A stretch of 64,000 nt of DNA from an uncultured Candidatus Saccharibacteria bacterium (GTDB lineage Bacteria; Patescibacteriota; Dojkabacteria; GCA-002793355). The stretch is from assembly GCA_964525295.1 (NCBI GenBank), contig CAZGEO010000002.1, forward strand, positions 129,230-193,229, read 5' to 3'. Of this stretch, positions 336-59,939 are shown piece by piece. A program made the translations under genes and the position numbers. The first letter of the stretch is position 1, and the number at the start of each line of letters is the position of its first letter. Under the pieces are notes generated by a model. It was not told the DNA's origin. It saw only the letters and a program-made list of their open reading frames with translations, and made no database searches.

Positions 336-378
336 TAAAGCGATAAAGCAATAAAGCAATAAAGCAATAAAGCAATAG
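336..378. repeat. tandem octamer repeat (ATAAAGCA) x4 perfect copies plus partial flanking units
   Basis: read directly: ataaagca at 343-350, 351-358, 359-366, 367-374; partial units on both sides; lies just after groES stop. Confidence 0.9.
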
Positions 379-487: not shown

Positions 488-706
488 ATGGTCGTTATGA
501 GAGATATCTATACAACTCGTACTCGTTCGCAAATCATTTTCGATAGCTTTTGGGGTGGTATGGCTTGGGGAATTGGTTCAATATTGGGAGCAGTTTTACT
601 CTTTGCGATTGTAGGTTTTATCATAACTCGTGTGCAAGCTATTCCCATAATTGGTAACTTTGTGTACAATGTTCTTATTGAAGTAGAAAAACTTCGAGGA
701 AATTAA
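488..706 (+). CDS. small single-pass membrane protein, unknown function
   Basis: 72 aa ORF with one hydrophobic helix (GIGSILGAVLLFAIVGFIIT); coding status uncertain. Confidence 0.35.
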   Translation: MVVMRDIYTTRTRSQIIFDSFWGGMAWGIGSILGAVLLFAIVGFIITRVQAIPIIGNFVYNVLIEVEKLRGN

Positions 707-1053: not shown

Positions 1054-2634
1054 TTGGCGCTAAACCAAGTAGAATCTGTTATGAACAAATTCTTGAAGAA
1101 ATTCCTAGAAATCGGGGCAGTATTGTTGATTGCCGGGGTGATATTTGCACCTCCTATTGCAGCAGTTGAAGATGTAAACCTCTATCTTAAAGTATACGAA
1201 GACGATGCCCAAGTTTCTAAAGTCATGACTGAATCTGATTCTGAAGATAAGCAGAAATCGAAGAATCGTGATTTGGTTGCAATGCTTGTATCCTGGTATA
1301 AAACAATGTTCGGTCTTGATGGCGCACCAAAGGCAGTTGTTGCTGAAGCTATTCAGAATGGCGAATTGCGTCCAGAGTTACAATATGGCGTTGTTCGTTA
1401 TGCAACAGATACGTATGTGAGTGCATTTTTTTATAGTCCATCGGTAAGTATTCCAAATTACTATGCAGATATGTTGTTGCCTGATGTGTTGAATCCTGCA
1501 TCATCAACTGCTTACGCTGCTGCAACCGATCAACCAGATAATCGTTCAGCAACAGAGTATCTAAAAAGTATGGGAATCAATAAACTTTGGGGTATTACCT
1601 TCGGTTTAGCCATGCTCATTTTGGTACTAGTTCTTATGGTTGCCGGTTTTATGATTATGTTCAGATCAAAGGCTGGTGGTCAAACAGTAGTTACCGTCAC
1701 TATGGCGTTGCAAAATGTTATTATTGGCGCGTTGTTAGCACTCGCAAGTTATGCGATTGGTGGTGTCTTTTTAAATATTTCGAAATACTTGATTCTTCTG
1801 ATTGGTACATTATTTGCCGGTTTCATGTCAGATCAAGGGCTAAATGTTATCTATCTGTCAGGGCCATGGAATTTAACTAAGGATTTTTTCATCACAACAA
1901 TTTGGGGTTCAAAAGATATTCTCGGTACAGCAACCGGTGCAGTTCAATCATGGGGTGATAGCATTGCGCAAGGTTGGGCAGGCTTTACTCAAGGTTGGCA
2001 AGATGCAAAGCAAACGGTTATTAGTCTTGAAGCATATCTTAATGGTTTATCTTCAGGTTTGTCAGGTACAGCGGAATTATTGAGAAATACGATTGCATAC
2101 CCATTTGTATTTATGGGGGCAAGAGTTATTCTTGGTGGAGTTATTCTTGTTGCTGCAATTAGAATTTTCTGGACAGTACTTTCAACATATATCAAAATGG
2201 TTGTTGATATTGTAATTGCACCGTTGGTTTTCATGATTTCAGCTCTTCCTGGTAAGCAGTCAGGTTATACAAACTGGCTGAATAGAATGTTTAAGAATGC
2301 CATTACAGTTCCAATCATGTTCGCTTTTGTTAACATTGCAGCATATCTCTCATTGAGTGTTGCTTCAGCACAAGGTGGTTGCAGTAACAATCTTATTACT
2401 TGTATATCGGCTGGAGCGATTCCTGTGGGGCAGAGTACTGGTACTGATTGGTTGTTTAGCGCAATGGGGCCAGGAGGAGTTATTGCTGCGGTTATGTTAA
2501 ACATGGTTCCAACTATGCCGGCATTTGTAGAAGATCTATTCTCTGGAAAATCAAGTGGTGGTCCATCGAAAGCCTGGGAAGGCGTCAAGAAGAACCTTCA
2601 AGTTTTGCCAGTATTTGGTGGGTTAATTCAATAA
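1054..2634 (+). CDS. polytopic membrane protein; signal peptide plus ~170 aa extracytoplasmic domain plus >=6 TM helices; VirB6/TrbL-like topology (function unproven)
   Basis: 526 aa; N-terminal hydrophobic signal (AVLLIAGVIFAPPIAA), then multiple long hydrophobic segments through the C-terminal two-thirds; internal antisense ORFs in the track look spurious. Confidence 0.5.
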   Translation: MALNQVESVMNKFLKKFLEIGAVLLIAGVIFAPPIAAVEDVNLYLKVYEDDAQVSKVMTESDSEDKQKSKNRDLVAMLVSWYKTMFGLDGAPKAVVAEAIQNGELRPELQYGVVRYATDTYVSAFFYSPSVSIPNYYADMLLPDVLNPASSTAYAAATDQPDNRSATEYLKSMGINKLWGITFGLAMLILVLVLMVAGFMIMFRSKAGGQTVVTVTMALQNVIIGALLALASYAIGGVFLNISKYLILLIGTLFAGFMSDQGLNVIYLSGPWNLTKDFFITTIWGSKDILGTATGAVQSWGDSIAQGWAGFTQGWQDAKQTVISLEAYLNGLSSGLSGTAELLRNTIAYPFVFMGARVILGGVILVAAIRIFWTVLSTYIKMVVDIVIAPLVFMISALPGKQSGYTNWLNRMFKNAITVPIMFAFVNIAAYLSLSVASAQGGCSNNLITCISAGAIPVGQSTGTDWLFSAMGPGGVIAAVMLNMVPTMPAFVEDLFSGKSSGGPSKAWEGVKKNLQVLPVFGGLIQ

Positions 2635-2646
2635 CGATAATAACTG

Positions 2647-5598
2647 ATGCCTGCGCCAAAAGGTCAAGAGTCAATGAGTGCATTGGGGTCATTATATGAC
2701 CTATTGTTCGCGGTCGCAGAAGATACATCAAAAAAGAAAGGGCCTGCAGCAGTTCCTGATCTCGTGACTTCGCAGATTAGCGATGGCGTTGCAGAAGGTT
2801 TAGTTGGTTTAGGCTCTGCACTCGCGGGAATTTCGGGCGAAAAAGGTGTAGAAAGTTTGGTTGGTTATGAATTAAAGGATTTATTCAACTCGTCAGCCGG
2901 AACTGTACAAGGTGAGTACAAAAATTTGTTTGGTACTGGAGATGGAAATCCCTATGTTTTTGCTACTCCAACAGCTGATGATCCTGACAAGAAAGCTTAC
3001 AATAAACAGGGTTTTTATGTTTTTAAAGATGAGGAAGGTGCGGAATTAGGGCGTCTTGACGCTTCTGGTGGTGTAACTGCAGAAGTTAATGCGGGAATGG
3101 TAAACAGTATATTGTTGAATCCAGCAGGTCTTGCGAATAGCATTGTTACTGATTGGTGGACAAAACGTCAGCAAGCCCAAATGATTGAAACGATTTCAGC
3201 AATTGTATCAGGTCAAACAGATCCTTCGCGCTTTTTGATGGATTCTGTCAATTTGGCTGATGATGTCGCACTTGATAATACTAATGCGCAAATTGCTGGA
3301 AACTACGTAAAGAATAGAAAGCTAGGTATAGATAAAGATGTTGCAGCAGCGATCGCCCAGGTAGAAGCTGCAGATTCAGCACGTGTAGCTGCCTTAGCTC
3401 GTGATAATCGTGGATACACAAAAGATGACTTGAGCCGATATACACAAGCTATAGATACTGCAGTTGCAATGTTTGCTGGAATCGACAAAGAAGAAGAGCG
3501 TTCAGAATTTGTTAATCTGTACAATTCTAGAGTCAAACAAGAATTGTTGAATAGATATAATCAAATGTCTGCCAATTTACCCCAATTTCAGGCAGTCAAC
3601 TCATTTGATGAGCTCTTTCTAGCAGCCAATAGAGGGCAATTACTTTCTATGCTTGATAACAATACATTATTTAATCGAGCATATGGTGGTCGTAGTCTTG
3701 GTGATGAAATGCAAAATGCATTTATGGATGTTTTTGGGCACTTAGGTACAGACAATACGTTATCTCCTCAGATGCGCGCGCATTTTGCTGGATTGTGGAA
3801 CAAAGTTGGGAATGACGAAACTTTTGGAAATTTGCTACGTTCAATGTCAACAGCTGTTAATCCAGAAGTTAAGAATGCGAGACCATTGATGCGTATGGGA
3901 ATTTCGGAGTTATCTGAGAAGATTAAGAATAACGCTGAAGGGGTGAAAAGTTTCTTACAATCACGAGTATTACAGAGTAACGAAAAACGATTAGAACGCG
4001 GTGATCAATGGAAAGATTTTAACGATTGGCGAGCGAAAACTGCCAATACCCTAAGTTACGCATACTTACGTTGGCAAACGGTTCCCTCAATTAATAAAAT
4101 ATTTACGCCAATCGGCCTATTAACGGGGCAAAGTTGGTATGATCTTTCAAACTGGGCTGGCGGTCCTGTTGGGTATGGTTTTGCTAAAACTTCTCCAGCT
4201 GAGTCTTTGAATATTGAATCTCCTAAAGTTTTTGGTGCTTATGGTTGGAATAAATTGCTTTTAATGCCAAGTAAAGCGAATGGGTTCCAAAAATTTGCGT
4301 ACACGATGGGAACATTTAGTCCATTGGGTGCTGCACAAGGATTCTTTAATGGCGATTTATTCCAAAGAATGGTTTGGATTGGTTCAGGATTTGGAAAGAA
4401 TATTGGTGACCAAACTAAGTGGGGTTGGATGGCAAGAGTTGGCCACGGTTTTTTAAACAATAGCGTATATCAAGGAATGGTTGGTGGCGTAAATTTTGGT
4501 CGTTATGTGTTTAACTTGCCTTCAATGATGATCAATCAATCGATGATGTTTATTCAGAAGGAGATTATTGATAAACTGCGCCAAAAAATGGCAGATGCGG
4601 CGGCGGCAGCATTTAGAAAATTAGTTGGCCAGAAAATTGCCGATTGGATAATTGCAGCAATTGGTGTAGTTACTGGTGGAATCATTAATGCGATTCAAAT
4701 TACTTATAAAGCATTGAATTATTTAACACTTGGTTTACTGGATAAAGTTACCGAATTTACATTGAAGCTTGCAATGCAAATTGTGATTGGTGTCATTTTG
4801 GGGATTTTTGTCGTAATTCCAGCGATTGCTGGAGGTGTAAATAGCGGTGATTCCAACGAAGTCGCTGCAACCCTCGGTTCTGGTGGCTTGCGTGCTCCTG
4901 ATCCTGATTGGGAACCGATTCTAGTAGATGCTGCGAATTTGGAGCTTGAACCACCTCCTGATCCTGGAGATGTTCCAACTGATGATCCGATAGATATGCC
5001 CGGTGCTAAAGGTATCGATGTGAGCCATTGGAACGGTGATATTAATTGGCAAACAGTTAAGAAATCAGGGCTTGTAGAGTTCGCAATTATTAAGGCCTCT
5101 GAAGGAACGGGGTTTGTTGATCATAGATTTGTAAAGAATTGTCAAAGTGCCAAATCTGTAGGTATTAAACGTTCGGCTTATCACTTCTTTCATGGTGATA
5201 TGAACGGAAAAGATCAAGCGAATCATTTCCTCAATACAATTAAGAAATGTGGCTCCGCTATGGATTTTGAAGTTACCATTGATGTTGAATTACCTTATAA
5301 AAGACCACCTCCAGATGTTAGTGTTTCAACGAAGAATTTGAAATTAATGCTTGATACGTTAGAGGCAGCACTTGGGTATAAGCCGATGATCTATACCAGT
5401 GATGTAATGTGGAAAGCAATGACAGTTCAACCAGGATGGGGGGGAAATGAGTATCCATTATGGGTTGCTGCGTATAATAATGTAGGTCCAGGTAAATTGC
5501 CAAAAGGTTGGACAGAATGGGTAATTTGGCAGTATAGCAAGAAAGGTAAGATCCCAGGAATTCCTTCTTCAGTTGACTTAAACATTTGGAACGATTAG
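2647..5598 (+). CDS. large membrane-anchored protein with C-terminal GH25 muramidase (lysozyme) domain
   Basis: 983 aa; C-terminus contains GIDVSHWNGDINWQTVKKSGLVEFAIIKASEG...SAYHFF...DVE, the hallmark GH25 (Lyz2/Cpl-1 type) signature; two TM helices around aa 660-740; Pro/Asp-rich linker before the hydrolase. Confidence 0.75.
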   Translation: MPAPKGQESMSALGSLYDLLFAVAEDTSKKKGPAAVPDLVTSQISDGVAEGLVGLGSALAGISGEKGVESLVGYELKDLFNSSAGTVQGEYKNLFGTGDGNPYVFATPTADDPDKKAYNKQGFYVFKDEEGAELGRLDASGGVTAEVNAGMVNSILLNPAGLANSIVTDWWTKRQQAQMIETISAIVSGQTDPSRFLMDSVNLADDVALDNTNAQIAGNYVKNRKLGIDKDVAAAIAQVEAADSARVAALARDNRGYTKDDLSRYTQAIDTAVAMFAGIDKEEERSEFVNLYNSRVKQELLNRYNQMSANLPQFQAVNSFDELFLAANRGQLLSMLDNNTLFNRAYGGRSLGDEMQNAFMDVFGHLGTDNTLSPQMRAHFAGLWNKVGNDETFGNLLRSMSTAVNPEVKNARPLMRMGISELSEKIKNNAEGVKSFLQSRVLQSNEKRLERGDQWKDFNDWRAKTANTLSYAYLRWQTVPSINKIFTPIGLLTGQSWYDLSNWAGGPVGYGFAKTSPAESLNIESPKVFGAYGWNKLLLMPSKANGFQKFAYTMGTFSPLGAAQGFFNGDLFQRMVWIGSGFGKNIGDQTKWGWMARVGHGFLNNSVYQGMVGGVNFGRYVFNLPSMMINQSMMFIQKEIIDKLRQKMADAAAAAFRKLVGQKIADWIIAAIGVVTGGIINAIQITYKALNYLTLGLLDKVTEFTLKLAMQIVIGVILGIFVVIPAIAGGVNSGDSNEVAATLGSGGLRAPDPDWEPILVDAANLELEPPPDPGDVPTDDPIDMPGAKGIDVSHWNGDINWQTVKKSGLVEFAIIKASEGTGFVDHRFVKNCQSAKSVGIKRSAYHFFHGDMNGKDQANHFLNTIKKCGSAMDFEVTIDVELPYKRPPPDVSVSTKNLKLMLDTLEAALGYKPMIYTSDVMWKAMTVQPGWGGNEYPLWVAAYNNVGPGKLPKGWTEWVIWQYSKKGKIPGIPSSVDLNIWND

Positions 5599-5652: not shown

Positions 5653-6816
5653 ATGTACATAATGAAAGCGTTTTCTTTGATGCAAAAATATGTAGTTAGA
5701 ACACTTATTGTGGCACTAACTGTAGCCCTTGTGCCTTTGTCATTTTCCTCTGAGGTTTATGCTGCGCCAAAATCAGCAAACCTTCCCATGACGTGTGATA
5801 GAAGTAAGGGAGTTTATAAAGAAATGTCAACACTCGTTGTCATTCCTCTTGATTCAATGTTTACACGAATGCCAGGTCAGAGTCCAGAAGATGCTGCAAA
5901 AGCTATCTTTTATGATCTTGTTTATGCCCGAGGGAATAAGGCTTCGCCGTTCAATGCGGTGTCAATAGATGGTGACATCTATCATTTATCTTGTGAATTT
6001 ATTGACTATACAGCGAATATTGAAACTGGTTTGAAGCAGGGTACTTTCATTTTGGGTGTTAGCGGGCAGGTTAAAACTGCAGAAATTCAGTCATTAATTG
6101 ATACGTACAAATTCACCTCCTTCTTGCAGGCTTCTATGGCAAAAAATACTGCCGAAAATGCGACAGCTACATTAGCTCTAGCGAATGTTAAAGAATGCGT
6201 AGCACCTTGTAAAGGTTTAAATGTCGCCAAAGACGGGCCCACCTCAAGATCCTATAAACTCGCAGTAAGCGATGTTGAATTTTCAAAGAGCGTTCGCCAA
6301 AGAGAACAAGCAGCATTGTCATTAAAAGTGAAAAATGAAAGTGAATTTCCAATCTATAATGTTGGTACTAATAGAGTAAAGTTACAAACTACTAGTTCAG
6401 GAACATCAGATTTGTATTATTCTACCTGGTTAGCTCCGAATATCGTAGCAATGAATACCGAAGTACTTTTGCCAGGGGCTGAGATGACATTTTCAACAAC
6501 TTTAGGTGCGCCTTTATTGCCTGGTAAATACTTCGAGAATTTTCAAGTTCAAGTAGGTAATTTCAAGCTTGAGAAACCGATCACTGTCGAATTTACGGTT
6601 GAAAAAGACAATCTAAAGTTAGGTCAAATAAAATCAAAAGATGGTGCAGCATTCGCAAACCTTCGTGAAGGGCCAAGTTTGACGGCAAATATTCTAGGTA
6701 GGCTTGATGTCGGCGTTTATGTCGTTATCAAAGAATATCAAGATGCTTGGGTCAAGGTCGAAACCAAAGAAGGTAAAACAGGGTGGGTATACAAGCCATC
6801 GATAAAAGAATTGTAA
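5653..6816 (+). CDS. secreted protein with C-terminal bacterial SH3 (SH3b) domain
   Basis: 387 aa; signal peptide (cleavage near VYA|AP); C-terminal ~65 aa resembles SH3b (GQIKSKDGAAFANLREGPS...GVYVVIKEYQDAWVKVE...GKTGWVY). Confidence 0.5.
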   Translation: MYIMKAFSLMQKYVVRTLIVALTVALVPLSFSSEVYAAPKSANLPMTCDRSKGVYKEMSTLVVIPLDSMFTRMPGQSPEDAAKAIFYDLVYARGNKASPFNAVSIDGDIYHLSCEFIDYTANIETGLKQGTFILGVSGQVKTAEIQSLIDTYKFTSFLQASMAKNTAENATATLALANVKECVAPCKGLNVAKDGPTSRSYKLAVSDVEFSKSVRQREQAALSLKVKNESEFPIYNVGTNRVKLQTTSSGTSDLYYSTWLAPNIVAMNTEVLLPGAEMTFSTTLGAPLLPGKYFENFQVQVGNFKLEKPITVEFTVEKDNLKLGQIKSKDGAAFANLREGPSLTANILGRLDVGVYVVIKEYQDAWVKVETKEGKTGWVYKPSIKEL

Positions 6817-6832
6817 GTTAGAAATAATTGCT

Positions 6833-8839
6833 ATGTCAGTACTTCTTGATTTGAATACGTTAAATGCTGCCCAAAAAGAGGCTGTTATTGAATGCGATGG
6901 CCCTTTACTCATCTTAGCTGGTGCAGGGTCAGGTAAAACACGCGTTATTACGTACAAAATTGTGCATTTAATTACCATGCTCAATTATGCTGCAGATGAA
7001 ATTTTGGCGGTTACCTTTACGAAAAAGGCAGCTGGTGAAATGCAGGAGCGTATCATGCAACTATTACCACCGCAATATCACGATAAGAAACCTTTTATTG
7101 GAACTTTCCACTCGTTTGGCGCTTTTTTGTTGCGTCGTCATGCAGACAAAATCGGGCTTGATAGAGCATTTTCGATTTATGACCAAGATGATCAGCTTTC
7201 GGTGATTAAGGCGATATGTAAAGATTTTGAAATTAGCGCCAATTTCAAACCGAATATGATCCATGAAAAAATTTCAGATGCGAAAAATAAAGGGATTACG
7301 GCAGACGATTATTTTGCTAATAGCTACGGTGATGACTTTGATGAAGCAGTGTCAAAAGTCTATAGAGAATATATGAAACGTTTGAAAGCTCAAAATGCCG
7401 TTGACTTTGATGATCTCTTGTCGCTAGTAGTGAAGCTTTTTGAGCAAAACGCTGATATTTTAGAGAAGTATCAAGATCGCTTCAAATATATACTGGTTGA
7501 TGAATACCAGGATACAAATATGGAGCAGTATCGAATAATTAGGTTGCTCGCCAAAAAACATCATAGACTGTGTGTTGTAGGTGATGAAGATCAGTCAATA
7601 TATTCTTGGCGTGGCGCAACAGTTGATAATATCCGTTTTTTTCAGAAAGATTTTCCAGATCATAAGATTGTAAAATTAGAGCAGAATTATCGTTCAACCA
7701 AGATAATTCTCGATGCTGCGAATCACGTAATCTCGAAAAATCCGAATCGAATTCCCAAAGCTTTGTGGACTGACAAAGACAAACAATACCCGATTGTCGT
7801 GTCGAGGCTTGAAGATCCATTTTCAGAGGCAATATACGTATTGCGCGAGTTACAAAATCATTTGAGGAATCTTGACGACGTGGCAGTTTTGTATCGCGTT
7901 AACTCGATGTCGCGAACATTTGAAGAAATGTTTGTGAAGTATGGGGTTCCATACAAATTGGTGGGTGGTGTCGGTTTTTATCAGCGTATGGAAGTAAAAG
8001 ATGTTTTGGCGTATTTAAAGTTTCTTAATAATCCAAAAGACGAAGTCAGTTTACTGCGAATCATAAATACGCCAACTCGAAAAATTGGTGATGGAGCAAT
8101 TAAAAATTTTCGTGAATTAGCTCGCAATGTGCATCTTGGGCTCGCTGAATTTGTTTGGTATGCGTCTCTCGTTGCACACGATGAAGACTTTGCTATGGTT
8201 ATGGTTAGTGAAGAATATCTTTCGAAAATTCAAGAATGTGCTGGCGATACATTGAAAAAATATCCTCAGTTATTCGAACAATTAGGGCGAGTCATAAAGA
8301 AGTCGTTTGATCCTGTTGTAGACATTTCGACATTTGTCATGGCATTGGTTGATGATGTTGGGTATAAAGCATGGATTGAAAAGATGGCAAGTTCGAAAGA
8401 AGAAATGATTTCTCGCTACGCAAATGTTCAAGAACTCGCTGCAGTTGCGCAGCGAAATAAATATGTGGGGCGCGAAGGTTTAACAAAATTTCTAGAAGAC
8501 GTAGCGCTTGTTGAAGAAGCAAAAGAAGTAACCGAAGAAACGAATTCAAATATTAAAGGAAAAGTGCACCTAATGTCGATTCATGCTGCAAAAGGCCTCG
8601 AGTTTGGAACTGTTTTTCTTGTTGGGCTAGAGGAAGGAATCTTCCCTCATAATCGTTCGTTAGATAATCCTGTACAAATGCAAGAAGAAAGACGACTGTT
8701 TTATGTCGCAATTACAAGAGCAAAAGAGCATCTTTTCTTGACAAGTGCACGTCGTAGGCAAATGGGAAATATGTCATTTGAGACTGTTCCGTCTCAATAT
8801 CTCGCAGATATTCCCGATAAACTCAAAGTCGAAGTGTAA
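6833..8839 (+). CDS. pcrA: ATP-dependent DNA helicase, UvrD/PcrA family
   Basis: 668 aa; Walker A AGAGSGKT, motif II VDEYQDTN, QNYRS, VGDEDQSIY; superfamily 1A helicase motifs in order. Confidence 0.9.
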   Translation: MSVLLDLNTLNAAQKEAVIECDGPLLILAGAGSGKTRVITYKIVHLITMLNYAADEILAVTFTKKAAGEMQERIMQLLPPQYHDKKPFIGTFHSFGAFLLRRHADKIGLDRAFSIYDQDDQLSVIKAICKDFEISANFKPNMIHEKISDAKNKGITADDYFANSYGDDFDEAVSKVYREYMKRLKAQNAVDFDDLLSLVVKLFEQNADILEKYQDRFKYILVDEYQDTNMEQYRIIRLLAKKHHRLCVVGDEDQSIYSWRGATVDNIRFFQKDFPDHKIVKLEQNYRSTKIILDAANHVISKNPNRIPKALWTDKDKQYPIVVSRLEDPFSEAIYVLRELQNHLRNLDDVAVLYRVNSMSRTFEEMFVKYGVPYKLVGGVGFYQRMEVKDVLAYLKFLNNPKDEVSLLRIINTPTRKIGDGAIKNFRELARNVHLGLAEFVWYASLVAHDEDFAMVMVSEEYLSKIQECAGDTLKKYPQLFEQLGRVIKKSFDPVVDISTFVMALVDDVGYKAWIEKMASSKEEMISRYANVQELAAVAQRNKYVGREGLTKFLEDVALVEEAKEVTEETNSNIKGKVHLMSIHAAKGLEFGTVFLVGLEEGIFPHNRSLDNPVQMQEERRLFYVAITRAKEHLFLTSARRRQMGNMSFETVPSQYLADIPDKLKVEV

Positions 8840-9829
8840 ATGGATGTGCTGAAAAAAGGTTTGCAAATTGTTAGAAGAAAACCGGTAAGGATTTTGCAGC
8901 TTTTAGGATTCATTCCTTTTAGTATCTTTTCATTGGTTCTTTTCCTTTTTCTTTTTTCAGCTCAATATAGTGTTTTAAGAAGGCAACTCTTTGTTCAGCA
9001 TATTATCGATACTTATATTGCTCAAGATAAATTCCAAGTGGGTTTTTCGCCCGATCAATATACTATTCTTACCTATGATTTAACGAAAAAGCCGAAAATT
9101 GATACGTGTATGGTATTGCAACCTGTCCAAATTCAATTACCGGGGCGTGCAATTCCAGTTTTTACCTGTGCAGACTCAGATGCTTCAGTTTTAGGAGAAA
9201 TTTTTCCAGGACAGTCACACGAAATTTCGGGTGAAACTCCGGTGGTCTTTGCGGGTAAAATTATTGCGGCTACACCGGTAGAGAAAACTGCACGAATGGA
9301 ATTTGAACAGGTCGCTTATGCAACGGAAACGTGGTATTCGAATGATATTGAAGATGGAAAAAAAATTGTTAAACAGGCTGGCCAGCCAGGTGTTAGAGCA
9401 AAAGTGATTGAAGAAATCGTTTATCCTGATAACCAAAAGAAGACGCAGGTGATTTCTAGCTGGATGGAAAAAGAGCCTGTAATTGAGAAGGTTGAGATAG
9501 GTACTAAACGAATTATGAAAACTGCAACGATTGACGGGGTAACATTTCAGTATTGGAAAACCCTAGATGTTGTTGCTACATCCTATGATAAAAACTGCAA
9601 GGGGTGTAATGAGTGGACTGCTACCGGGGCATATTTGAAGAAAGGAATAGTCGCGGTTGATCCGAAGGTTATTAAAATGCATACGAAAATGTACATCCCT
9701 GGCTATGGTTTTGGACAGGCAGAAGATACCGGTGGCGCAATCAAAGGAAACAAGATAGATCTAGCGTTTGATGATGTTAGATACGGAAACTGGAGCAAGA
9801 GGACGGTTACTATTTATTTAATTAACTAG
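8840..9829 (+). CDS. membrane-anchored 3D-domain protein (MltA-like / YabE-YuiC-like cell-wall-binding domain)
   Basis: 329 aa; N-terminal TM; C-terminus ATSYDKNCKGC...GYGFGQAEDTGGAIKGNKIDLAFDD matches 3D domain with its three conserved Asp. Confidence 0.6.
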   Translation: MDVLKKGLQIVRRKPVRILQLLGFIPFSIFSLVLFLFLFSAQYSVLRRQLFVQHIIDTYIAQDKFQVGFSPDQYTILTYDLTKKPKIDTCMVLQPVQIQLPGRAIPVFTCADSDASVLGEIFPGQSHEISGETPVVFAGKIIAATPVEKTARMEFEQVAYATETWYSNDIEDGKKIVKQAGQPGVRAKVIEEIVYPDNQKKTQVISSWMEKEPVIEKVEIGTKRIMKTATIDGVTFQYWKTLDVVATSYDKNCKGCNEWTATGAYLKKGIVAVDPKVIKMHTKMYIPGYGFGQAEDTGGAIKGNKIDLAFDDVRYGNWSKRTVTIYLIN

Positions 9830-27897: not shown

Positions 27898-29178
27898 ATG
27901 CTCCGAAACCTGGTACGTTTCTTCACGTTTTTCCTCATGTTGATGGTTTTGTTGGCACGTTTTGGTATTCCTGAAATTTTAGCTTCAGAGATTTCAAATA
28001 TTTATCTGGTAGAACAGGCAAATAAAGAGCGTTTGGCACAAGGGCTAACTCCACTCAAATATAACAAGAAACTTGAGAGAGCTGCTTTTTTGAAGGCAGA
28101 AAATATGCTTAAAGAGCAGTATTGGTCGCATTATGGCCCACATAAAGAAAGTCCATGGCAATTTATTTTGCAAACTGGTTACAGCTATCAGGTTGCAGGT
28201 GAAAATCTTGCAAAAGGTTTCAGTGAAGCACAATCTGTTCATGACGCTTGGATGGCGAGTCCAACGCATCGCGCAAATATCATGGACTCACGATATCAAG
28301 ACATTGGCATAGCAGTTGTAAAAGGCGATCTTCTGGGGAACAACGTATATTTAGTTGTTCAAATGTTCGGAAATGTCAATGCTTCTGTAACAGGTTCACC
28401 AGCTGATTATCCACGATTGCAGATAACTAGTCCAGAAGATGGCGATATTCTTGAAGATGGAATCATCGATATTCGAGGTGAAGCAGATAAAATTGAATCA
28501 TCTGGAGTATCCGTTTATATAGACAAAACAATGCTTGGCACTACGCAGCCTGTTGAGAAGAAGTTTTCCTTAGAAGCAAATTTATCGGGCTCACAGGGTG
28601 AACAAACTATTACTGCAAAAGCCGTAGGAATTGGAGATACGTATTTGGCAGATAATGTTGTAGTTACCGTTATTAAGAATGCCTCAACCGATGTAGCAAC
28701 CAAGAATTGTATAACCGGTAAAATTAATGCGGTTGATTTTGAACTTCGTTATTCATGTTCAACAAAACCTCAGAGTTTTACGGCAACAATTGAAGCTGTT
28801 AAATATACAGCTGATAGCGCGCAGAATCTTATTAAAATTCCGGTTTCAGCACTTCCCGAGAATGATGCGCAGATTATTGTGTCATTGCAATTTCCAAATC
28901 AAGCGAATACGGCAACGTCTTTTCTGCTTTCAGATTTTGGTGTTGTTGCATCGCAGCAACAAACGGTAGCAGGAAGTGGGCAGAATATCTTTTCGTCGCT
29001 TACATTGAAGCAGGGTATAACCGTCATTTTTGTTATAGCTGCAATTTTGCTTCTTTTGTATATTGCTCAACTTATCTATAAAAAACAGCTATTTGAGCAT
29101 CGCGCAGAAGTTCTCATTATTGCAATATTTCTGGTAATTCTATTTATTGTATTTAATGTTGGAATTGTCAGATTATGA
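27898..29178 (+). CDS. CAP/SCP/PR-1 domain (YkwD-like) protein with signal peptide and C-terminal TM anchor
   Basis: 426 aa; CAP domain motifs (HY..GENLA...AW..SP.HRANI); Ig-like middle; hydrophobic C-terminal helix. Confidence 0.6.
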   Translation: MLRNLVRFFTFFLMLMVLLARFGIPEILASEISNIYLVEQANKERLAQGLTPLKYNKKLERAAFLKAENMLKEQYWSHYGPHKESPWQFILQTGYSYQVAGENLAKGFSEAQSVHDAWMASPTHRANIMDSRYQDIGIAVVKGDLLGNNVYLVVQMFGNVNASVTGSPADYPRLQITSPEDGDILEDGIIDIRGEADKIESSGVSVYIDKTMLGTTQPVEKKFSLEANLSGSQGEQTITAKAVGIGDTYLADNVVVTVIKNASTDVATKNCITGKINAVDFELRYSCSTKPQSFTATIEAVKYTADSAQNLIKIPVSALPENDAQIIVSLQFPNQANTATSFLLSDFGVVASQQQTVAGSGQNIFSSLTLKQGITVIFVIAAILLLLYIAQLIYKKQLFEHRAEVLIIAIFLVILFIVFNVGIVRL

Positions 29179-37480: not shown

Positions 37481-37718
37481 GAAATAGGGTGCATGAGCAG
37501 GAGCTTTGGTCCTTTGGGCTAAAGAGGAAAGTCCCGCCTCACATAAGTCACTAGCGAAAGCTAGGTAGGAGAAATCTTACGGATAGGGTCACAGAAATAT
37601 ACCCAGAAATGGGGTGAAATGCCGAACTGGCTATAGATAACCCCTGGCAGTGAGCAAGTCTAAGACGCTAAGATAAATTCCTGCGTAACAGAAGCGGGCT
37701 TACGGTGCGCCCTATTTC
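37481..37718 (+). ncRNA. rnpB: RNase P RNA, reduced bacterial type (~238 nt)
   Basis: P4 5' strand GAGGAAAGTCCCGCCTC; GGGGTGAAATGCC; 3' element TAACAGAAGCGGGCTTACGGT; 12-bp P1 pairing between GAAATAGGGTGC (37481-) and GCGCCCTATTTC (-37718). Confidence 0.75.
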
Positions 37719-44021: not shown

Positions 44022-45470
44022 TTATTTCAGATACACTTTGATTTGGTTAGAGTAATTGTCACAGCCACCGCCGGTGTAGCGACATACTCGCACATAGTAG
44101 TAACCTTCACCCTTGAAAGCTGATAATTCCCCAAATGAACGAACAGAACTTGATGATAAGTATTGGTTTTTATCACCTCCATCATCTCGGCCAGGGTAGG
44201 TTGGCCCACTATTTTTTGACCAAACTACTTTGAAACCGTTTGGTGTATCAAGGTTGCTAACTGTCCATGCAACTGAGGTTGCGCCGGTACTCTTGATGCA
44301 GAGTTTGAAACCTGTACACGCATTGGTTGGTGGCTTAGTTGGTGCTGGGGTAACTGGGGGTGGTGGGGATTCGCGTGTTACTGTGAGCTCAACTTTTGCC
44401 ATGTTGCCTGCTTTGTCTAATGCTTTGACGACGAAGTTGTTGGTACCAAGCTTTAGGTCAAATTCTTTTGAGAATTGCCCTTCATTGTTTTCAACTTTTA
44501 CGCCGTTAATCCAGACATAGGCTTCTTTTTCTGTTTTTCCAGAGATTTTTGCCGTCCAGTTTGTTGTTTTGCTGTTGTTTTGTGGTTCAGTAACAGTAAG
44601 TTCTGGAGCAGTTGTGTCTGCAAAAATGCCTAAATCTTCTTTGTATTCTTTTGAAGATTCATCAACTGTTTTATTCCAATCAACAAAGGTATCATTTTTC
44701 AGATCTTCTTCTTTTACAATCGGCTGAACGATTTTTTCTGTTGTTGGCGCTTTGGTATCAACTAAATAATATTTCTTACCTTCATCTACAACAATTTCCT
44801 TACCTTGATCAATAACATTTACTTTGTTGGCAAAAACTTCGACACCCTTTTTTGAGGAATTCTCGGTGACTCGGTAGGCTGTTCCCATCGCTTTATAACT
44901 AACGCCATTTGCTGAAACAATAAATTCACGAGTTTCAGATTTTGAAACGCGAGCATAGATTTCTCCTCGAGTATTTGTTACTACGATATTTCGTGGATCA
45001 AGTGAAGTCAGAATAATTTCTGAATCGCTATTCAATCGAATTGCGCTCCCGTCGTCTAGGTTTACAATAGCTTTACTATTTTGAGCGACACGAATGACAT
45101 CTCCTTGCTGTAATTTTGTATCAAGATTTGCGGTAGTCCATTTACCATCACGTTGATATTCAACCGTGCCTTCGGCAAATGCTATTTCTAGTCCGAGATT
45201 TTTATTAATTATTTTTTCTGAAATAAATAATGAGCCAACCACAAAAATGGTTGCTGCTACAATAACTGCCCCGCCAAGAAGCATGAACCTCTTGAGGAAG
45301 GTTTGAGTTGGTGACATATTTTTTGTCGTTATATTAATGTAACGATCAAGCACCTTTTGTCTGAGCTCTTCCTTGAACGCAGAATCTCGCCCTGAACGGG
45401 TTTTCCTGATTACTGCTTTTTTGAAGAATCCGTGCGCAGCGGTTTCTTCCGGAAGTGGTGAGTTGACCAT
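44022..45470 (-). CDS. FecR-like anti-sigma factor with single TM and C-terminal Ig/fibronectin-like extracytoplasmic domains
   Basis: 482 aa; cytoplasmic N-terminus, one TM helix (LLGGAVIVAATIFVVGSLFI), FecR-like beta-rich region, Pro-rich linker, Cys-containing C-terminal domain; directly downstream of ECF sigma. Confidence 0.5.
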   Translation of the reverse strand: MVNSPLPEETAAHGFFKKAVIRKTRSGRDSAFKEELRQKVLDRYINITTKNMSPTQTFLKRFMLLGGAVIVAATIFVVGSLFISEKIINKNLGLEIAFAEGTVEYQRDGKWTTANLDTKLQQGDVIRVAQNSKAIVNLDDGSAIRLNSDSEIILTSLDPRNIVVTNTRGEIYARVSKSETREFIVSANGVSYKAMGTAYRVTENSSKKGVEVFANKVNVIDQGKEIVVDEGKKYYLVDTKAPTTEKIVQPIVKEEDLKNDTFVDWNKTVDESSKEYKEDLGIFADTTAPELTVTEPQNNSKTTNWTAKISGKTEKEAYVWINGVKVENNEGQFSKEFDLKLGTNNFVVKALDKAGNMAKVELTVTRESPPPPVTPAPTKPPTNACTGFKLCIKSTGATSVAWTVSNLDTPNGFKVVWSKNSGPTYPGRDDGGDKNQYLSSSSVRSFGELSAFKGEGYYYVRVCRYTGGGCDNYSNQIKVYLK

Positions 45471-46129: not shown

Positions 46130-47617
46130 CTACCATTGGTAATAATAATTCAATTCGTTCTCAATTAATGGAGGTTCACCAATCGCAAACAGAATTTCAT
46201 TCGCATAGGTGATAACTTCGGCTGTTCTCGCAAATGTCATCATAATGAAGTGATTCTGATATTTTTTATAAAATCCTTGCCCGTAAGCGCGATCAAGTTC
46301 AGTCTCAAGCTTTTTCGCATCTTTCGTGTTGTAAATGGAAATCCAAGTTGTTTCAGGAATTTTTTTCATCATCTGTCTGACAATAAATGTAGGATAGGCA
46401 TAAGAAGAGTAGTCACCACGTTCAATGACCGCAAGGTGAACAGTTTTTAACGTAAGGTGTTGAGTCATCGCTTCTTCAAAGAAAGATGGAAGAGCATTAC
46501 CCGATTGACTTGACTGATAGTGCAGTTGCTCGTGAGTAATTACCTCGGCCATGACTTTTGGCTTGCTTGCAAGTTCAGGAAGAAAGTTAATACTGATTGT
46601 ACTTGGTGGGCTAAATCTGCCCCATTGAATGTTTACAATGGTTTTTTGCTGTAAGGCTTCTTTTAGTAAAGTACGGCCTTTTGTGATGGCATTGCGAGTT
46701 TGGGAGATGCTGGTTTCAAGGCTAGTTTGTGCGTTTCTAGTATAGCTACCACTTCCTCTTGCGATTTCACTTTTTACAAGAGAAAGTTCATTTTCAAGAA
46801 TGCCAAGGTTATTTTCTAACTTTGAAATATAAGAACGCACGTCTGCAATGTATGCATTCAGTTCATCTTGTGCTCCTTTTTCGAAGTCTGCGGGTGCCAA
46901 TACAATAAATACTGGTTTAATATTTTTTTGCGGTAATTTAAGGCAAGACATTAAGGAAGTGCCCACTTCAGGGAGAATAGTTTGTCCCATTGCAAGTGTT
47001 AATGATTGCAAATAGATAGAATTATTATATGCAAAAATCGGGTAATTTCGCTCAGAAATGGTTAACTTTTTCGTTGAATCATCTAATGCTTTCGCAAATA
47101 TAATTTCTGTATAAAAGTTCTCTGTGTTAAGTCGTGTGCGCTCCTTTTCTATGACTAACGCTCGCTCAAGTTCGCGCACATTAAACTTATACAGCTGACA
47201 GCTTCGTTGCGTTTGCGCAAGGATTTTAATGGTCGCGATATCAGTAACAATCGTGTTCGGCAGATCTTTTTCAATAGTTGCCACATTTTCGCGCACATTA
47301 AGACCTGCATAATAAGCTACAGCAGCGAAGGCAAAAGAGATTCCCACAAATAAAAGAAAGAACGAAAATAAAAGATTCTTTAAGATTTCTGCAAAAATTT
47401 TTGTTGCATTGAGAAAATCCCAATTACGTTTTGGAACAAATATAAGGAAAGTTGCGATAATTATTACATAGGTAATGATTGAGGTCGCTAACCATATCGG
47501 GAAAGTCGCAAGTGATAAATTTGTTGGAAGAAGGTAAAGAAAAGTGAAAAATGCGACTATTACATTTAATACAAGAATAGCAATAACTTGAAGAGGCGAT
47601 CGAGATTGTTCTTGCAT
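46130..47617 (-). CDS. membrane protein with extracytoplasmic domain containing HExxH motif (putative metallopeptidase-like)
   Basis: 495 aa; 3-4 N-terminal TM helices; HEQLH near C-terminus; first gene of apparent operon with ECF sigma and anti-sigma. Confidence 0.35.
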   Translation of the reverse strand: MQEQSRSPLQVIAILVLNVIVAFFTFLYLLPTNLSLATFPIWLATSIITYVIIIATFLIFVPKRNWDFLNATKIFAEILKNLLFSFFLLFVGISFAFAAVAYYAGLNVRENVATIEKDLPNTIVTDIATIKILAQTQRSCQLYKFNVRELERALVIEKERTRLNTENFYTEIIFAKALDDSTKKLTISERNYPIFAYNNSIYLQSLTLAMGQTILPEVGTSLMSCLKLPQKNIKPVFIVLAPADFEKGAQDELNAYIADVRSYISKLENNLGILENELSLVKSEIARGSGSYTRNAQTSLETSISQTRNAITKGRTLLKEALQQKTIVNIQWGRFSPPSTISINFLPELASKPKVMAEVITHEQLHYQSSQSGNALPSFFEEAMTQHLTLKTVHLAVIERGDYSSYAYPTFIVRQMMKKIPETTWISIYNTKDAKKLETELDRAYGQGFYKKYQNHFIMMTFARTAEVITYANEILFAIGEPPLIENELNYYYQW

Positions 47618-59508: not shown

Positions 59509-59939
59509 TGAAGGCATTTACTTTATTTGAAGTTCTTCTTGCTATGGCAATTGGAGCCATGCTTATGACGGTACCTTTTGCGATAAATTCAACAACTATA
59601 TATAGAATTCAAGTTGAAACGGTACAATCTCAGGTAGGTGATGCATTTAGAAAAGCACAAAATTATGCAAAAAGTTCGCGATTAGATAGCGACTGGGGTG
59701 TGTATATTCAAACAAGAACCATCACAGTTTTTAAAGGAAGTACTTATGCTACACGCGATACAGCGTTTGATGATAGTGTTGCTTTTGACACAAAAATTTC
59801 GATGAGTGCAACTGCAGCAGAAATTGTTTTTGCAAAAGCAACAGGGAATACAGGAACTTCCTCGACGATTACAATTTTCGGTGGACCAAATACAAAAACA
59901 GTAACCTATACAGCAAATGGGAATGTTGTATTCAATTAG
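59508..59939 (+). CDS. prepilin-type (type IV pilin / pseudopilin) protein
   Basis: MKA|FTLFEVLLAMAIGAMLM: class III signal with Glu at +5, Ala at -1; 143 aa. Confidence 0.7.
   Translation: MKAFTLFEVLLAMAIGAMLMTVPFAINSTTIYRIQVETVQSQVGDAFRKAQNYAKSSRLDSDWGVYIQTRTITVFKGSTYATRDTAFDDSVAFDTKISMSATAAEIVFAKATGNTGTSSTITIFGGPNTKTVTYTANGNVVFN

Follow-up and report, generated by a model that had tools for sequence, protein, structure and literature searches.

Most known GH25 enzymes are small proteins, secreted or of phage origin, that bear wall-binding repeats, and they (PF01183; Cellosyl 1JFX, Cpl-1, LytA-type phage and bacterial lysozymes) share a complete domain with a catalytic Asp/Asp/Glu. The protein described here shares this domain, but as the exchangeable tip of a 983-aa, predicted membrane-anchored polypeptide whose orthologues bear M23 instead. 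Comparable designs also include the SpoIIQ-SpoIIIAH 'feeding tube' and FtsEX-PcsB/EnvC, where a (pseudo)hydrolase domain, membrane-anchored and outside the cell, is linked to machinery in the membrane or the cytoplasm, and phage tape-measure and ejection proteins that carry lytic domains, for example T5 Pb2 and mycobacteriophage tape measures. How Patescibacteria remodel their own wall or that of a host is poorly understood.

A further related design is that of the VirB1-type hydrolases of monoderm conjugation, CwlT (ICEBs1), PrgK (pCF10), TraG (pIP501) and TcpG (pCW3) (in part after PMC12102498). These are membrane-tethered extracytoplasmic peptidoglycan hydrolases, often combining a glycosidase with a peptidase, and the same design is predicted here; in addition, a Paenibacillus plasmid cluster carries a hydrolase directly behind a polytopic gene at the VirB6 position, and the hydrolase gene described here likewise follows a polytopic, possibly VirB6-like gene. 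The present locus differs in that its catalytic families are GH25 and M23 rather than SLT, CHAP, NlpC-P60 or GH73, in that the anchor follows a novel N-terminal domain of ~700 aa that CwlT, PrgK, TraG and TcpG lack, and in that the locus is chromosomal and vertically inherited beside ribosomal protein operons, with no T4SS pilin, coupling protein or relaxase family recorded in the flanks examined.

A large fraction of bacterial diversity belongs to Patescibacteria, of which every cultivated member lives attached to another microbe (PMC12206443). The DNA analysed here, referred to as the window, is a stretch of 64,000 nt from an uncultured Candidatus Saccharibacteria bacterium (GTDB lineage Bacteria; Patescibacteriota; Dojkabacteria; GCA-002793355), taken from assembly GCA_964525295.1, contig CAZGEO010000002.1, positions 129,230-193,229 of the forward strand. 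The window shows CPR-like traits, for example an RNase P RNA of 234 nt. Its GH25-bearing gene defines a lineage-restricted, previously undescribed family in which a large helical scaffold is joined to a membrane anchor and to a wall-cutting head that can be exchanged.

Domain architecture of the GH25-bearing protein

The initial annotation had described an unusual architecture, in which an N-terminal part of unknown function is followed by hydrophobic helices, a Pro/Asp-rich linker and a C-terminal GH25 domain, and this is borne out by the open reading frame and by Pfam (Table 1). The longest ORF on the opposite strand encodes only 94 aa. A complete GH25 domain occupies the C-terminal 195 aa: the Pfam search aligned aa 790-972 with profile positions 1-180 of 180 of PF01183 (score 153.3 bits, curated cut-off 27, E 1.1e-44), and GIDVSHWNGDINW, quoted in the annotation as the start of the domain, maps to aa 789-801. 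PHROG endolysin families match the same region, and the nearest solved relative is Cellosyl (1JFX, E 2.8e-26). The annotation had also called for an alignment of the catalytic residues. In a MAFFT alignment of Cellosyl with six family GH25 domains, including this one, Asp791, Asp879 and Glu881 are invariant and correspond to Asp9, Asp98 and Glu100 of Cellosyl, the DxE being assigned from this multiple alignment since pairwise alignments shift it by 3-4 residues. The catalytic residues are thus all intact, and the domain is predicted to be an active muramidase.

Table 1. Features of the hydrolase gene and its neighbours (positions in the window)
Feature	Position (nt)	Strand	Details and basis
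DUF5665 protein, 72 aa, single TM	488..706	+	First after groES; ~71-aa counterpart in several related loci, missing in others
84-aa protein, N-terminal TM helix	734..988	+	In most related loci a counterpart of ~87-91 aa lies before the partner gene
Conserved partner gene, 517-aa polytopic membrane protein	1081..2634	+	TM scan; signal anchor, ~150-aa ectodomain, then at least 6 hydrophobic segments
GH25-bearing gene	2647..5598	+	ATG start, 983 aa; novel N-domain, one TM anchor, Pro/Asp-rich linker, GH25 muramidase
Novel all-helical N-terminal domain	2647..4632	+	aa 1-662; AF2 model, conserved columns, Cys counts
Extreme N-terminal motif MSALGxxYD	2674..2700	+	aa 10-18; invariant columns in alignment
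Helix H1	4636..4707	+	aa 664-687; amphipathic or of weak hydrophobicity, unlikely to span the membrane
Juxtamembrane motif YxILNxLTFGxLDK	4705..4746	+	aa 687-700; conserved columns
Helix H2, single conserved transmembrane anchor	4768..4839	+	aa 708-731; Hessa dG, KD peak 2.67
Acidic Pro-rich linker, predicted extracytoplasmic	4840..5010	+	aa 732-788; composition
PDPxYxP motif in linker	4897-4917	+	aa 751-757; P751 and P757 at least 90% conserved
GH25 muramidase domain	5014..5562	+	aa 790-972; Pfam, Cellosyl match, multiple alignment
Catalytic residues	Asp791 5017-5019; Asp879 5281-5283; Glu881 5287-5289	+	Alignment to Cellosyl
Secreted 387-aa protein, C-terminal SH3_3 wall-binding domain	5653..6816	+	After the hydrolase gene in every related locus reaching past it
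PcrA/UvrD helicase	6833-8839	+	Conserved downstream neighbour; 16 nt after the SH3 gene
Membrane-anchored G5 + 3D (RpfB/YabE-like) wall protein	8840-9829	+	Conserved downstream neighbour; 0 nt after PcrA

The first two-thirds of the protein had been reported to lack a signal peptide and any recognisable motif. Hydropathy and Hessa-scale scans detected neither a hydrophobic segment nor a signal peptide in aa 1-650, aa 1-789 yielded no Pfam, NCBIfam or PHROG family match, and Foldseek searches of the N-domain against PDB and BFVD gave no match at E<=0.001. Overall, the ~750 N-terminal residues have no relative in PDB, by sequence or by fold, or among deposited phages or plasmids. In the AF2 model the domain is all alpha, with pLDDT of 80-93 at aa 210-450 and 70-90 at aa 470-630, and its conservation peaks at aa ~470-630 (YRWQTxPxINKIFTPxGLLTG; KANxFQKxAY...NGDxFQRxxWIGSGFG). 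Near the extreme N-terminus, M10, S11, L13, G14, Y17 and D18 are invariant in a 6-sequence alignment. The resulting MSALGxxYD motif is found in most of the 22 family members and is specific enough to pull four related loci out of 185,579 species genomes. The domain (aa 1-662) contains no cysteine. Against a cytoplasmic placing, a 700-aa domain without any cysteine is unusual for a cytoplasmic protein and would also fit a polypeptide exported unfolded.

A Patescibacteria family with interchangeable catalytic heads

An exhaustive search of 1.84 billion proteins defines a rare family of 22 representatives, the query and 21 others, all of 716-1241 aa; together with the lack of known family or fold matches, this agrees with the earlier proposal that the N-terminal domain is a new family. 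The named genomes that encode it all belong to Patescibacteria (Saccharibacteria, Dojkabacteria or 'Patescibacteria group'), and in the cultivated Saccharibacterium S. epibionticum the gene is absent at the corresponding position. The question had been raised whether homologues are fused to other hydrolases, and they are: the catalytic head of most relatives is M23 instead of GH25, and some bear GH25 plus M23. Interchangeable catalytic heads sit on a conserved scaffold. When the swaps are mapped on the N-domain tree, the M23 endopeptidase looks to be the ancestral head, and GH25 was gained beside it or took its place on at least 2-3 occasions, this genome among them. Such repeated exchange of M23 and GH25 on a fixed scaffold is a clean natural case of modular wall-hydrolase evolution outside phages.

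Membrane topology

Two closely spaced hydrophobic helices (~664-687 and ~708-731), described initially as transmembrane, are visible in the protein, of which the second alone has a predicted tendency to enter the membrane. The Hessa dG of H1 is +3.0 kcal/mol here, with a family median of +4.65 and a favourable value in only 1 of 21 proteins, and charged residues lie within it in most homologues; for H2 the value is -0.3 kcal/mol here, the family median is -2.0 and insertion is favourable in 18 of 21. In the juxtamembrane motif, conservation reaches at least 90% for Y687, G696, L698 and K700 among the 22 sequences, and likewise for G696, L698 and K700 in alignment A1. The composition of aa 745-790 (22% Pro, 17% Asp, net charge -9) agrees with the acidic Pro-rich spacer of the annotation, whose quoted linker peptide maps to aa 751-786. 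The PDPxYxP motif within the linker is present in 19 of 25 family proteins, and the tether from this motif to the catalytic domain is ~20-55 aa across the family.

The hydrolase had been placed on the opposite side of the membrane from the N-terminal domain on the strength of two transmembrane helices. That argument is wrong, since two such helices would leave both termini on the same side, but the topology itself is probably right, because there is one conserved transmembrane helix with 2-7 K/R residues before H1 and an acidic segment after H2, and because the tail beyond it is rich in even-numbered cysteines. The pre-TM part has no cysteine in 20 of 25 proteins and only six in total; at the 0.40% Cys of nine cytoplasmic proteins of the window, ~75 would be predicted in the pre-TM parts of the 25 proteins. 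The post-TM tails contain 0-14 cysteines, at least six in 20 of 25 proteins and nearly always an even number. Charge bias and cysteine distribution therefore favour a probable N-in/C-out topology. With GH25 or M23 following the helix, the family members are predicted to be membrane-anchored extracytoplasmic hydrolases.

Conserved gene order at a housekeeping locus

The order groES, small TM proteins, ~500-aa polytopic protein, hydrolase, SH3 protein, PcrA, G5/3D protein and EF-G is kept in 10 of 11 relatives' loci, and the contig of the eleventh ends early. Eight relatives' loci had gene calls and precomputed Pfam annotation, and three genome loci were judged by ORF pattern only. The ten syntenic loci span ~20-37% identity, and a second contig with an identical protein repeats the same gene order. 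Gaps between genes of the conserved order are 12-65 nt in the window, and the locus adjoins the EF-G/EF-Tu/S10 operon. The locus is chromosomal and vertically inherited.

No T4SS pilin, coupling protein or relaxase families were recorded in the relatives' flanks (eight loci with precomputed Pfam), and ATPase families other than PcrA were recorded neither in these eight loci nor on the duplicate contig, which likewise showed no T4SS pilin family. Ten large ORFs scanned within the 64-kb window contained no VirB4-like family. As no T4SS pilin family was recorded in the stretches examined, the module cannot be called a T4SS. The annotation had likened the protein to conjugative coupling/hydrolase fusions. 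A coupling-protein fusion is ruled out, as the N-domain model is all-helical and matches no AAA or other ATPase family; what stands of the comparison is a link to conjugation through the neighbouring gene only, by way of its weak VirB6/TrbL affinities.

The polytopic partner protein and its possible relation to VirB6/TrbL

The partner gene ends 12 nt upstream of the hydrolase gene, an adjacency that is conserved, and has an alternative TTG start at 1054. Its orthologues (n=9) show 47% mean column identity. A KD scan reveals a signal anchor and several strong hydrophobic segments, indicating a polytopic protein with at least five TM helices, and the AF2 model contains long helices at aa 166-487 (mean pLDDT 64). 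VirB6/TrbL proteins, including 'extended' VirB6 and ConG/TcpH-like forms, are likewise polytopic with at least six hydrophobic segments.

PF04610 (TrbL/VirB6) is matched by one of 23 partner-family members (E 4.8e-5), by elimination P0029 or P0031, which are close orthologues. When the partner model was compared with PDB using Foldseek, chains of R388 TrwI/VirB6 ranked top by probability (0.90, 0.72 and 0.69; TM-score 0.40-0.47) but with E of 0.3-1.3, followed by DotA at probability 0.44, the remaining matches listed being at or below 0.16. In a tblastn search P0031 matched (E 8e-4) a 949-aa gene that takes the VirB6 position in a conjugation cluster of Paenibacillus, where an M23 plus glucosaminidase hydrolase directly follows, and the only plasmid match of the window's partner is this same gene at a non-significant E of 2. 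The distant partner homologues P0039 and P0050 adjoin T4SS-pilin genes (PF18895). Against this, the window's partner has no Pfam match, its PDB sequence-profile search found nothing, hhalign gave a probability of 0.2 with TrwI and 8% with the Paenibacillus protein, and no T4SS pilins were recorded near its own subfamily in the relatives' loci examined. The partner is possibly a divergent VirB6/TrbL-like protein.

Proposed function and alternative explanations

We give an even chance to the explanation that this bitopic N-in/C-out Patescibacteria protein and its VirB6-like partner form a T4SS-derived wall-hydrolase module that has become fixed in the chromosome. The GH25 muramidase would be held just outside the cytoplasmic membrane on a Pro/Asp-rich tether of ~55 residues, while the ~700-aa cysteine-free helical N-domain would stay cytoplasmic and membrane-proximal. 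The 983-aa protein would most likely act in complex with the polytopic, possibly VirB6/TrbL-like partner, probably joined by the SH3 wall-binding protein from the downstream gene. Its task would be local cleavage of the bacterium's own peptidoglycan, in the manner of VirB1-type hydrolases beside VirB6-like proteins in monoderm conjugation; the short tethers (~20-55 aa) point to the producer's own wall as the substrate. Should the pairing prove functional, part of a T4SS would have parted from its ATPases and become a fixed core module of the chromosome, and the locus would offer a concrete candidate for envelope remodelling in Patescibacteria.

A housekeeping autolysin for growth, division or budding, whose N-domain senses or docks with the divisome or cytoskeleton and gates the external hydrolase across the membrane, would follow FtsEX-PcsB/EnvC/CwlO logic in one polypeptide, with the partner as a regulator unrelated to secretion. 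We regard this as unlikely, although a glycosidase or an endopeptidase would each serve septal wall splitting, and although the gene is a core gene kept in strict synteny with groES, PcrA, EF-G/EF-Tu and the S10 operon down to ~20% identity, shares an apparent operon with the G5/3D RpfB-like and SH3 wall-binding proteins and has FtsA/FtsQ-like or PilM/FtsA-like genes nearby in loci L013 and L015. The only detectable affinities of the partner, though weak, are to VirB6/TrbL and to genes of T4SS-pilin or conjugation clusters; repeated head swapping is more typical of accessory or arms-race proteins; and rarity of the family, with its absence at the corresponding position in cultivated Saccharibacteria, would be odd for an essential division enzyme. 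The protein could instead be an exported or injected attack protein, functionally like phage tape-measure/ejection proteins or T4SS antibacterial effectors, with the N-domain passing unfolded, and independently of a Sec signal, through either the VirB6-like partner or a T4SS whose genes lie elsewhere, the helices inserting into a host membrane and the hydrolase breaching the host wall. CPR bacteria live on host bacteria and need T4SS to do so (PMC10633639), the N-parts of 700-960 aa are near cysteine-free without a signal peptide, the conserved motif at the extreme N-terminus could act as a signal for recognition, and head swapping is a trait shared with polymorphic toxins and tape-measure proteins. 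Such a role is nevertheless decidedly improbable, as no secretion ATPase family apart from PcrA was recorded in the neighbouring genes, no immunity gene is obvious, H2, whose flanking charges follow the positive-inside pattern, resembles an ordinary stable anchor and the short tether of M23 members suits action beside the producer's own membrane.

Phage comparisons bear on this attack reading as well as on the tape-measure one. Like tape-measure/ejection proteins, the protein is long and helical, with hydrophobic helices near its C-terminal third and with an M23 or lysozyme domain that can be exchanged, and the family's M23 columns match the phage internal/ejection proteins 9k2v_E and 9m7n_A. 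However, the suggestion of a tape-measure-like protein is not supported: beyond the hydrolase domain there is no sequence or significant fold similarity, the locus is cellular and conserved, no Pfam or PHROG tape-measure family matched aa 1-789 or the N-regions of seven homologues, tblastn against 50,697 phage genomes gave no match, and neither integrase, capsid nor tail module is annotated near the gene in the window or the relatives' loci examined. Minor-tail, tape-measure and DNA-transfer proteins do recur among the BFVD matches, but all of these are non-significant (best E 0.049, TM-scores ~0.1). Helical viral proteins are mostly tape measures in any case. A decayed prophage lysis cassette, with holin-like TM proteins, an endolysin and an SH3 module and with the long N-part as an accidental fusion, could draw on the two small single-TM proteins upstream and on GH25, M23 and SH3 as classic endolysin modules, of which the first is matched by PHROG endolysin families. 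It is barely credible, since the N-domain is itself conserved with invariant motifs and has no match in phage genomes, and it is effectively refuted by the identical gene order at a housekeeping locus in ten relatives' loci, which excludes a recent prophage.

Going beyond the chromosomally fixed wall-hydrolase module that we favour, it is conceivable, but very doubtful, that the locus is a minimal Patescibacteria envelope-breaching or 'feeding' device distinct from the canonical CPR T4SS. A VirB6-derived platform without a dedicated ATPase alongside would then export or deploy the N-domain, recognised via MSALGxxYD, and the choice of hydrolase head (M23, GH25 or both) would suit the kind of peptidoglycan in the host bacterium. 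If true, this would be a new kind of contact-dependent apparatus. SpoIIQ-SpoIIIAH and FtsEX-PcsB/EnvC are conceptual analogues, although there are no ABC ATPase or SpoIIIA-like genes here and homology is limited to the generic M23 fold, SpoIIQ being among the weak matches of the family's M23 columns.

A GH25 muramidase joined to a new N-terminal domain family

The open reading frame of the fusion protein is real: it runs from an ATG start through 983 codons, and the longest ORF on the opposite strand encodes 94 aa. Its C-terminal GH25 domain is ordinary and complete by Pfam (aa 790–972, 153 bits, profile positions 1–180 of 180), and both PHROG endolysin families and solved GH25 enzymes match this region of the protein only, the closest of the latter being Cellosyl (1JFX, E = 2.8e-26). 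When Cellosyl and the family's other GH25 domains are aligned together with this one, Asp791, Asp879 and Glu881 are invariant and line up with Asp9, Asp98 and Glu100, the catalytic residues of Cellosyl; pairwise alignments misplaced the DxE motif by a few residues. The initial annotation had described a large uncharacterised N-terminal region, a Pro/Asp-rich linker and a C-terminal GH25 lysozyme; the ORF, the Pfam match, the catalytic residues and the composition of the linker (aa 745–790; 22% Pro, 17% Asp, net charge −9) all agree with this architecture.

Residues 1–789 have no match in Pfam, NCBIfam or PHROGs. In an AF2 model built from a 22-sequence alignment the N-domain is all-helical (mean pLDDT 62.7), with pLDDT values of 80–93 at aa 210–450 and 70–90 at aa 470–630. 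Foldseek searches with the fusion model found nothing at E ≤ 0.001 in either the PDB (best 0.27) or BFVD (best 0.049, TM-scores near 0.1), and the family profile matched only M23 enzymes in the PDB. Tape-measure and minor-tail proteins recur among the non-significant BFVD matches; since most long helical viral proteins are tape measures, we regard this recurrence as a base-rate effect. A tape-measure origin, raised in the initial annotation, finds no footing elsewhere either, as seven trimmed N-regions of homologues matched no PHROG family, and tblastn gave no match in 50,697 phage genomes or in 72,556 plasmids. The other suggestion made there, that the N-domain represents a new family, is upheld. 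Literature searches on DUF5665, or on CPR together with GH25, M23 or VirB6, returned no description of the fusion family, and both the N-domain family and its architecture appear to be undescribed in the literature searched.

Hydrolase heads are exchanged within the family

Word-indexed homologue searches with the N-region or the family alignment returned the query alone, and an exhaustive HMMER search was required to find the family: a scan of 1.84 billion representatives with aa 1–745 recovered 21 further proteins, all of 716–1241 aa. Retrieval of loci with a 6-sequence alignment worked through the N-terminal motif only, the 22-sequence alignment having too few conserved stretches. Family members share the motif MSALGxxYD close to the N-terminus, several conserved helical motifs (strongest at aa ~470–630), a juxtamembrane motif, YxILNxLTFGxLDK, and one strongly hydrophobic helix followed shortly by PDPxYxP and then by the C-terminal hydrolase.

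N-domain homologues are indeed fused to other hydrolases, a question that the initial annotation had left for comparison. M23 is the only head in 15 members and GH25 in three (the window protein, P0010 and P0014); GH25 precedes M23 in P0012 and P0019, and the order is reversed in P0022, a further event. One further protein is truncated. P0016 ends in a 266-aa tail (aa ~780–1046) that has 10 cysteines but in which neither GH25 nor M23 nor any other Pfam domain can be recognised, and which may represent a catalytic head of a third, so far unknown kind. In a neighbour-joining tree of the N-domain all deep branches are M23 and GH25 falls in two separate clades; together with the reversed order in P0022, this indicates at least two or three exchanges of the hydrolase head.

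A single membrane pass probably separates the N-domain from the hydrolase

The initial annotation combined two TM helices with opposite-side placement of the N-domain and the hydrolase, whereas with two TM helices the N- and C-termini would share one side. Only the second of the two hydrophobic helices is favourable across the family: the Hessa ΔG of H2 (aa 708–731) has a family median of −2.0 kcal/mol, is favourable in 18 of 21 proteins and is −0.3 in the window protein, and that of H1 (aa 664–687), which usually contains charged residues, has a median of +4.65 kcal/mol, is favourable in 1 of 21 and is +3.0 in the window protein. Lys and Arg cluster before the helices and an acidic segment follows H2. 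The 700–960 residues preceding the membrane segment (aa 1–711 in the window protein) are Cys-free in 20 of 25 proteins and hold 6 Cys in total, against ~75 expected at the 0.40% Cys that cytoplasmic proteins encoded in the window show, and the tails beyond it contain 0–14 Cys, with at least 6 in 20 of 25 proteins and nearly always an even count. From charge bias and cysteine distribution we infer that the protein crosses the membrane once, N-in/C-out, and that disulfide bonds stabilise the hydrolase outside; the opposite-side placement is thus probably right, though not by way of two TM helices.

The fusion gene belongs to a vertically inherited core locus

The window looks like chromosomal DNA of a reduced-genome bacterium, with groES upstream of the fusion gene and the genes for PcrA, EF-G, EF-Tu and ribosomal proteins downstream. 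Genome records containing relatives are named Saccharibacteria, Dojkabacteria or 'Patescibacteria group'; the identical protein also occurs on a second contig (L001), and the longest of the contigs from which it comes measures 383,677 bp. We examined gene order at the loci of 11 relatives (L002–L004, L006–L010 and L013–L015), eight with gene calls and precomputed Pfam annotation and three as genome records checked by ORF pattern; L010 ends inside the fusion gene and shows the upstream side only. The order is groES, DUF5665 (annotated in some loci), a small TM protein (in most), a polytopic protein of ~460–545 aa, the fusion gene, sometimes a ~300-aa gene, a ~375-aa SH3 protein, PcrA, a G5/3D protein, EF-G, EF-Tu and the S10 operon. 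It is kept even among members that are ~20% identical, L001 follows it as far as the contig extends, and intergenic gaps in the window are 12–65 nt. Neither a T4SS pilin family nor a phage tail module or plasmid gene was recorded near the fusion gene in the loci examined. This is a vertically inherited core locus in which the enzyme head has been replaced in place. A scan for promoters and terminators gave no excess over shuffled controls. S. epibionticum, a cultivated Saccharibacterium, has TIM, SEML1_0669 and PcrA in succession at the corresponding position and, by its Tn-seq tables (PMC10633639), lacks a counterpart there; these published data therefore have no bearing on the fusion gene.

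The position of PcrA/UvrD is kept in every related locus (L002–L015) that extends far enough, a conserved link between a DNA helicase and genes of the envelope. The extra gene before the SH3 gene, found in more divergent, M23-bearing lineages and absent from the window, encodes ~290–330 aa without a Pfam match. In L013, a divergent relative, one of two inserted small proteins has weak, sub-threshold PilO/T2SSM similarity, and the opposite strand just upstream carries FtsA and a faint POTRA match (possibly FtsQ).

The upstream partner has a likely affinity to VirB6

The polytopic partner encoded immediately upstream is much better conserved than the fusion protein, with 47% mean column identity over nine orthologues; the figure for the fusion family is 20%. 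A Pfam TrbL/VirB6 match (E = 4.8e-5) comes from one close orthologue, by elimination either P0029 or P0031. When the partner model was compared with 350,542 PDB chains, the highest-probability folds were R388 TrwI/VirB6 chains (0.90, 0.72 and 0.69; TM-score ≤0.47, E 0.3–1.3), followed by the DotA protochannel (0.44), the remaining matches listed being ≤0.16. P0031 matched a 949-aa protein on Paenibacillus plasmids (E = 8e-4) over the most conserved TM motif of the partner family. The gene for this protein occupies the VirB6 position of a conjugation cluster: TcpE and an 880-aa ATP-binding protein, which we take to be in the VirB4 position, come directly before it, and directly 3′ of it is an M23 plus glucosaminidase hydrolase gene. 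In Paenibacillus urinalis plasmid NZ_CP118110 (L017) this hydrolase, annotated only as 'glucosaminidase domain-containing protein', also has M23 at aa ~118–217 (hhalign probability 92%) and is therefore a two-activity T4SS hydrolase. The sole plasmid match of the window partner is the same Paenibacillus gene at a non-significant E of 2, and P0029 had none by tblastn. Profile alignment of the partner family by hhalign gave no signal for R388 TrwI or for TrwJ as control and only 8% probability for the Paenibacillus protein, and a PDB sequence-profile search was empty. In our view, the VirB6 affinity of the partner is likely but unproven.

A further pointer to VirB6 is that distant members of the partner family are found alongside PF18895 T4SS-pilin genes and giant proteins without annotation, in surroundings resembling Patescibacteria T4SS clusters (PMC10633639, PMC12102498). 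Two such clusters, L011 and L012 from other genomes, include very large unannotated proteins (1303, 1124, 759 and 573 aa) as well as an M23 protein of 1486 aa, and L011 also encodes a 1589-aa ClpB-like AAA protein and has a weak C39-peptidase match. The fusion-family HMM found no similarity in any protein of these clusters, which eliminated the large unannotated proteins as N-domain relatives. Similarly, the N-domain is not recognisable as a split-off C-terminal domain of an extended VirB6, as hhalign of its family against the Paenibacillus 949-aa protein found nothing. VirB6 and VirB1-like homologues away from virB4 have been reported in Patescibacteria by a study that does not describe the fusion family (PMC12102498). 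A chromosomally fixed pair, possibly of a VirB6-like protein and a swappable hydrolase, appears to be undescribed in the literature searched.

A putative wall-opening module

In ConG-CwlT of ICEBs1 and Orf15-Orf14 of Tn916, as in the Paenibacillus cluster, a polytopic gene in the VirB6 position is followed by a membrane-tethered glycosidase/peptidase. From this shared order we infer, as regards function, that fusion protein and partner may constitute a T4SS-derived two-component module for opening the wall. The partner would supply a platform in the membrane, and the N-domain together with the juxtamembrane motif would bind to it from inside the cell. The tethered hydrolase, which is GH25 here and M23 in other members, would cleave peptidoglycan of the producer itself near the membrane, and the SH3 protein may target or restrain its activity. 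M23 members have only ~20 residues between PDPxYxP and the catalytic domain, and such short tethers favour the cell's own wall over that of a host as substrate. Such an opening could serve growth and budding, an interface with the host, or the assembly of a T4SS or of pili whose genes lie elsewhere.

An autolysin of cell division controlled from the cytoplasm would be consistent with a gene that behaves as part of the core and has wall and division genes close by, but we consider it less likely than the T4SS-derived module. We give rather less credence to a protein exported or injected to attack another cell: the Cys-free N-part keeps export in an unfolded form alive, and the conserved N-terminus fits it too. 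The conserved gene order all but rules out a decayed phage lysis cassette.

Other features of the window and of related loci

At only 234 nt, the RNase P RNA covers all 367 positions of the model and scores just over the gathering threshold (101.4 against 100); it is strongly reduced, consistent with a CPR genome. Upstream of groES in L001, a few kb from the locus, is a defence-like island with a type ISP restriction-modification enzyme (N6_Mtase/Type_ISP_C), an Abi_C protein and a HARE-HTH protein. One of the ~480-aa window proteins lacking a Pfam match sits within the PilB/PilC type IV pilus cluster.

Coordinates of features in the window and in related loci
Feature	Sequence	Position (strand)	Remark
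8-bp tandem repeat TAAAGCAA	Window	336–377	5.2 copies, 97% matches; directly 3′ of groES, before DUF5665 gene
Partner gene	Window	1081–2634 (+)	517 aa; ends 12 nt before fusion gene
Fusion gene	Window	2647–5598 (+)	983 aa
Segment before TM helix	Window	2647–4779
PcrA/UvrD helicase	Window	6833–8839	Between SH3 and G5/3D genes; gaps 16 nt and 0 nt
CAP-domain protein	Window	27898–29178	426 aa; envelope/secreted candidate
FecR + Glucodextran_B protein; two ~480-aa proteins without Pfam match	Window	44022–45470 (−); 46130–47617 (−); 59917–61338	Envelope/secreted candidates
RNase P RNA, bacterial class A	Window	37485–37718
Type IV pilus cluster	Window	56–61 kb
Defence-like island	L001	1–4288
Extra gene between fusion and SH3 genes	L006	5167–6108
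Extra gene between fusion and SH3 genes	L013	12826–13701
Extra gene between fusion and SH3 genes	L015	12865–13857
PilM_2/FtsA-like actin-fold protein and two small proteins	L013	5732–8047	Between groES and partner gene
T4SS-pilin cluster	L011	1–13610	Two PF18895 genes; distant partner homologue
T4SS-pilin cluster	L012	1–21713	Five PF18895 genes; distant partner homologue
M23 + glucosaminidase hydrolase	L017	13941–15791
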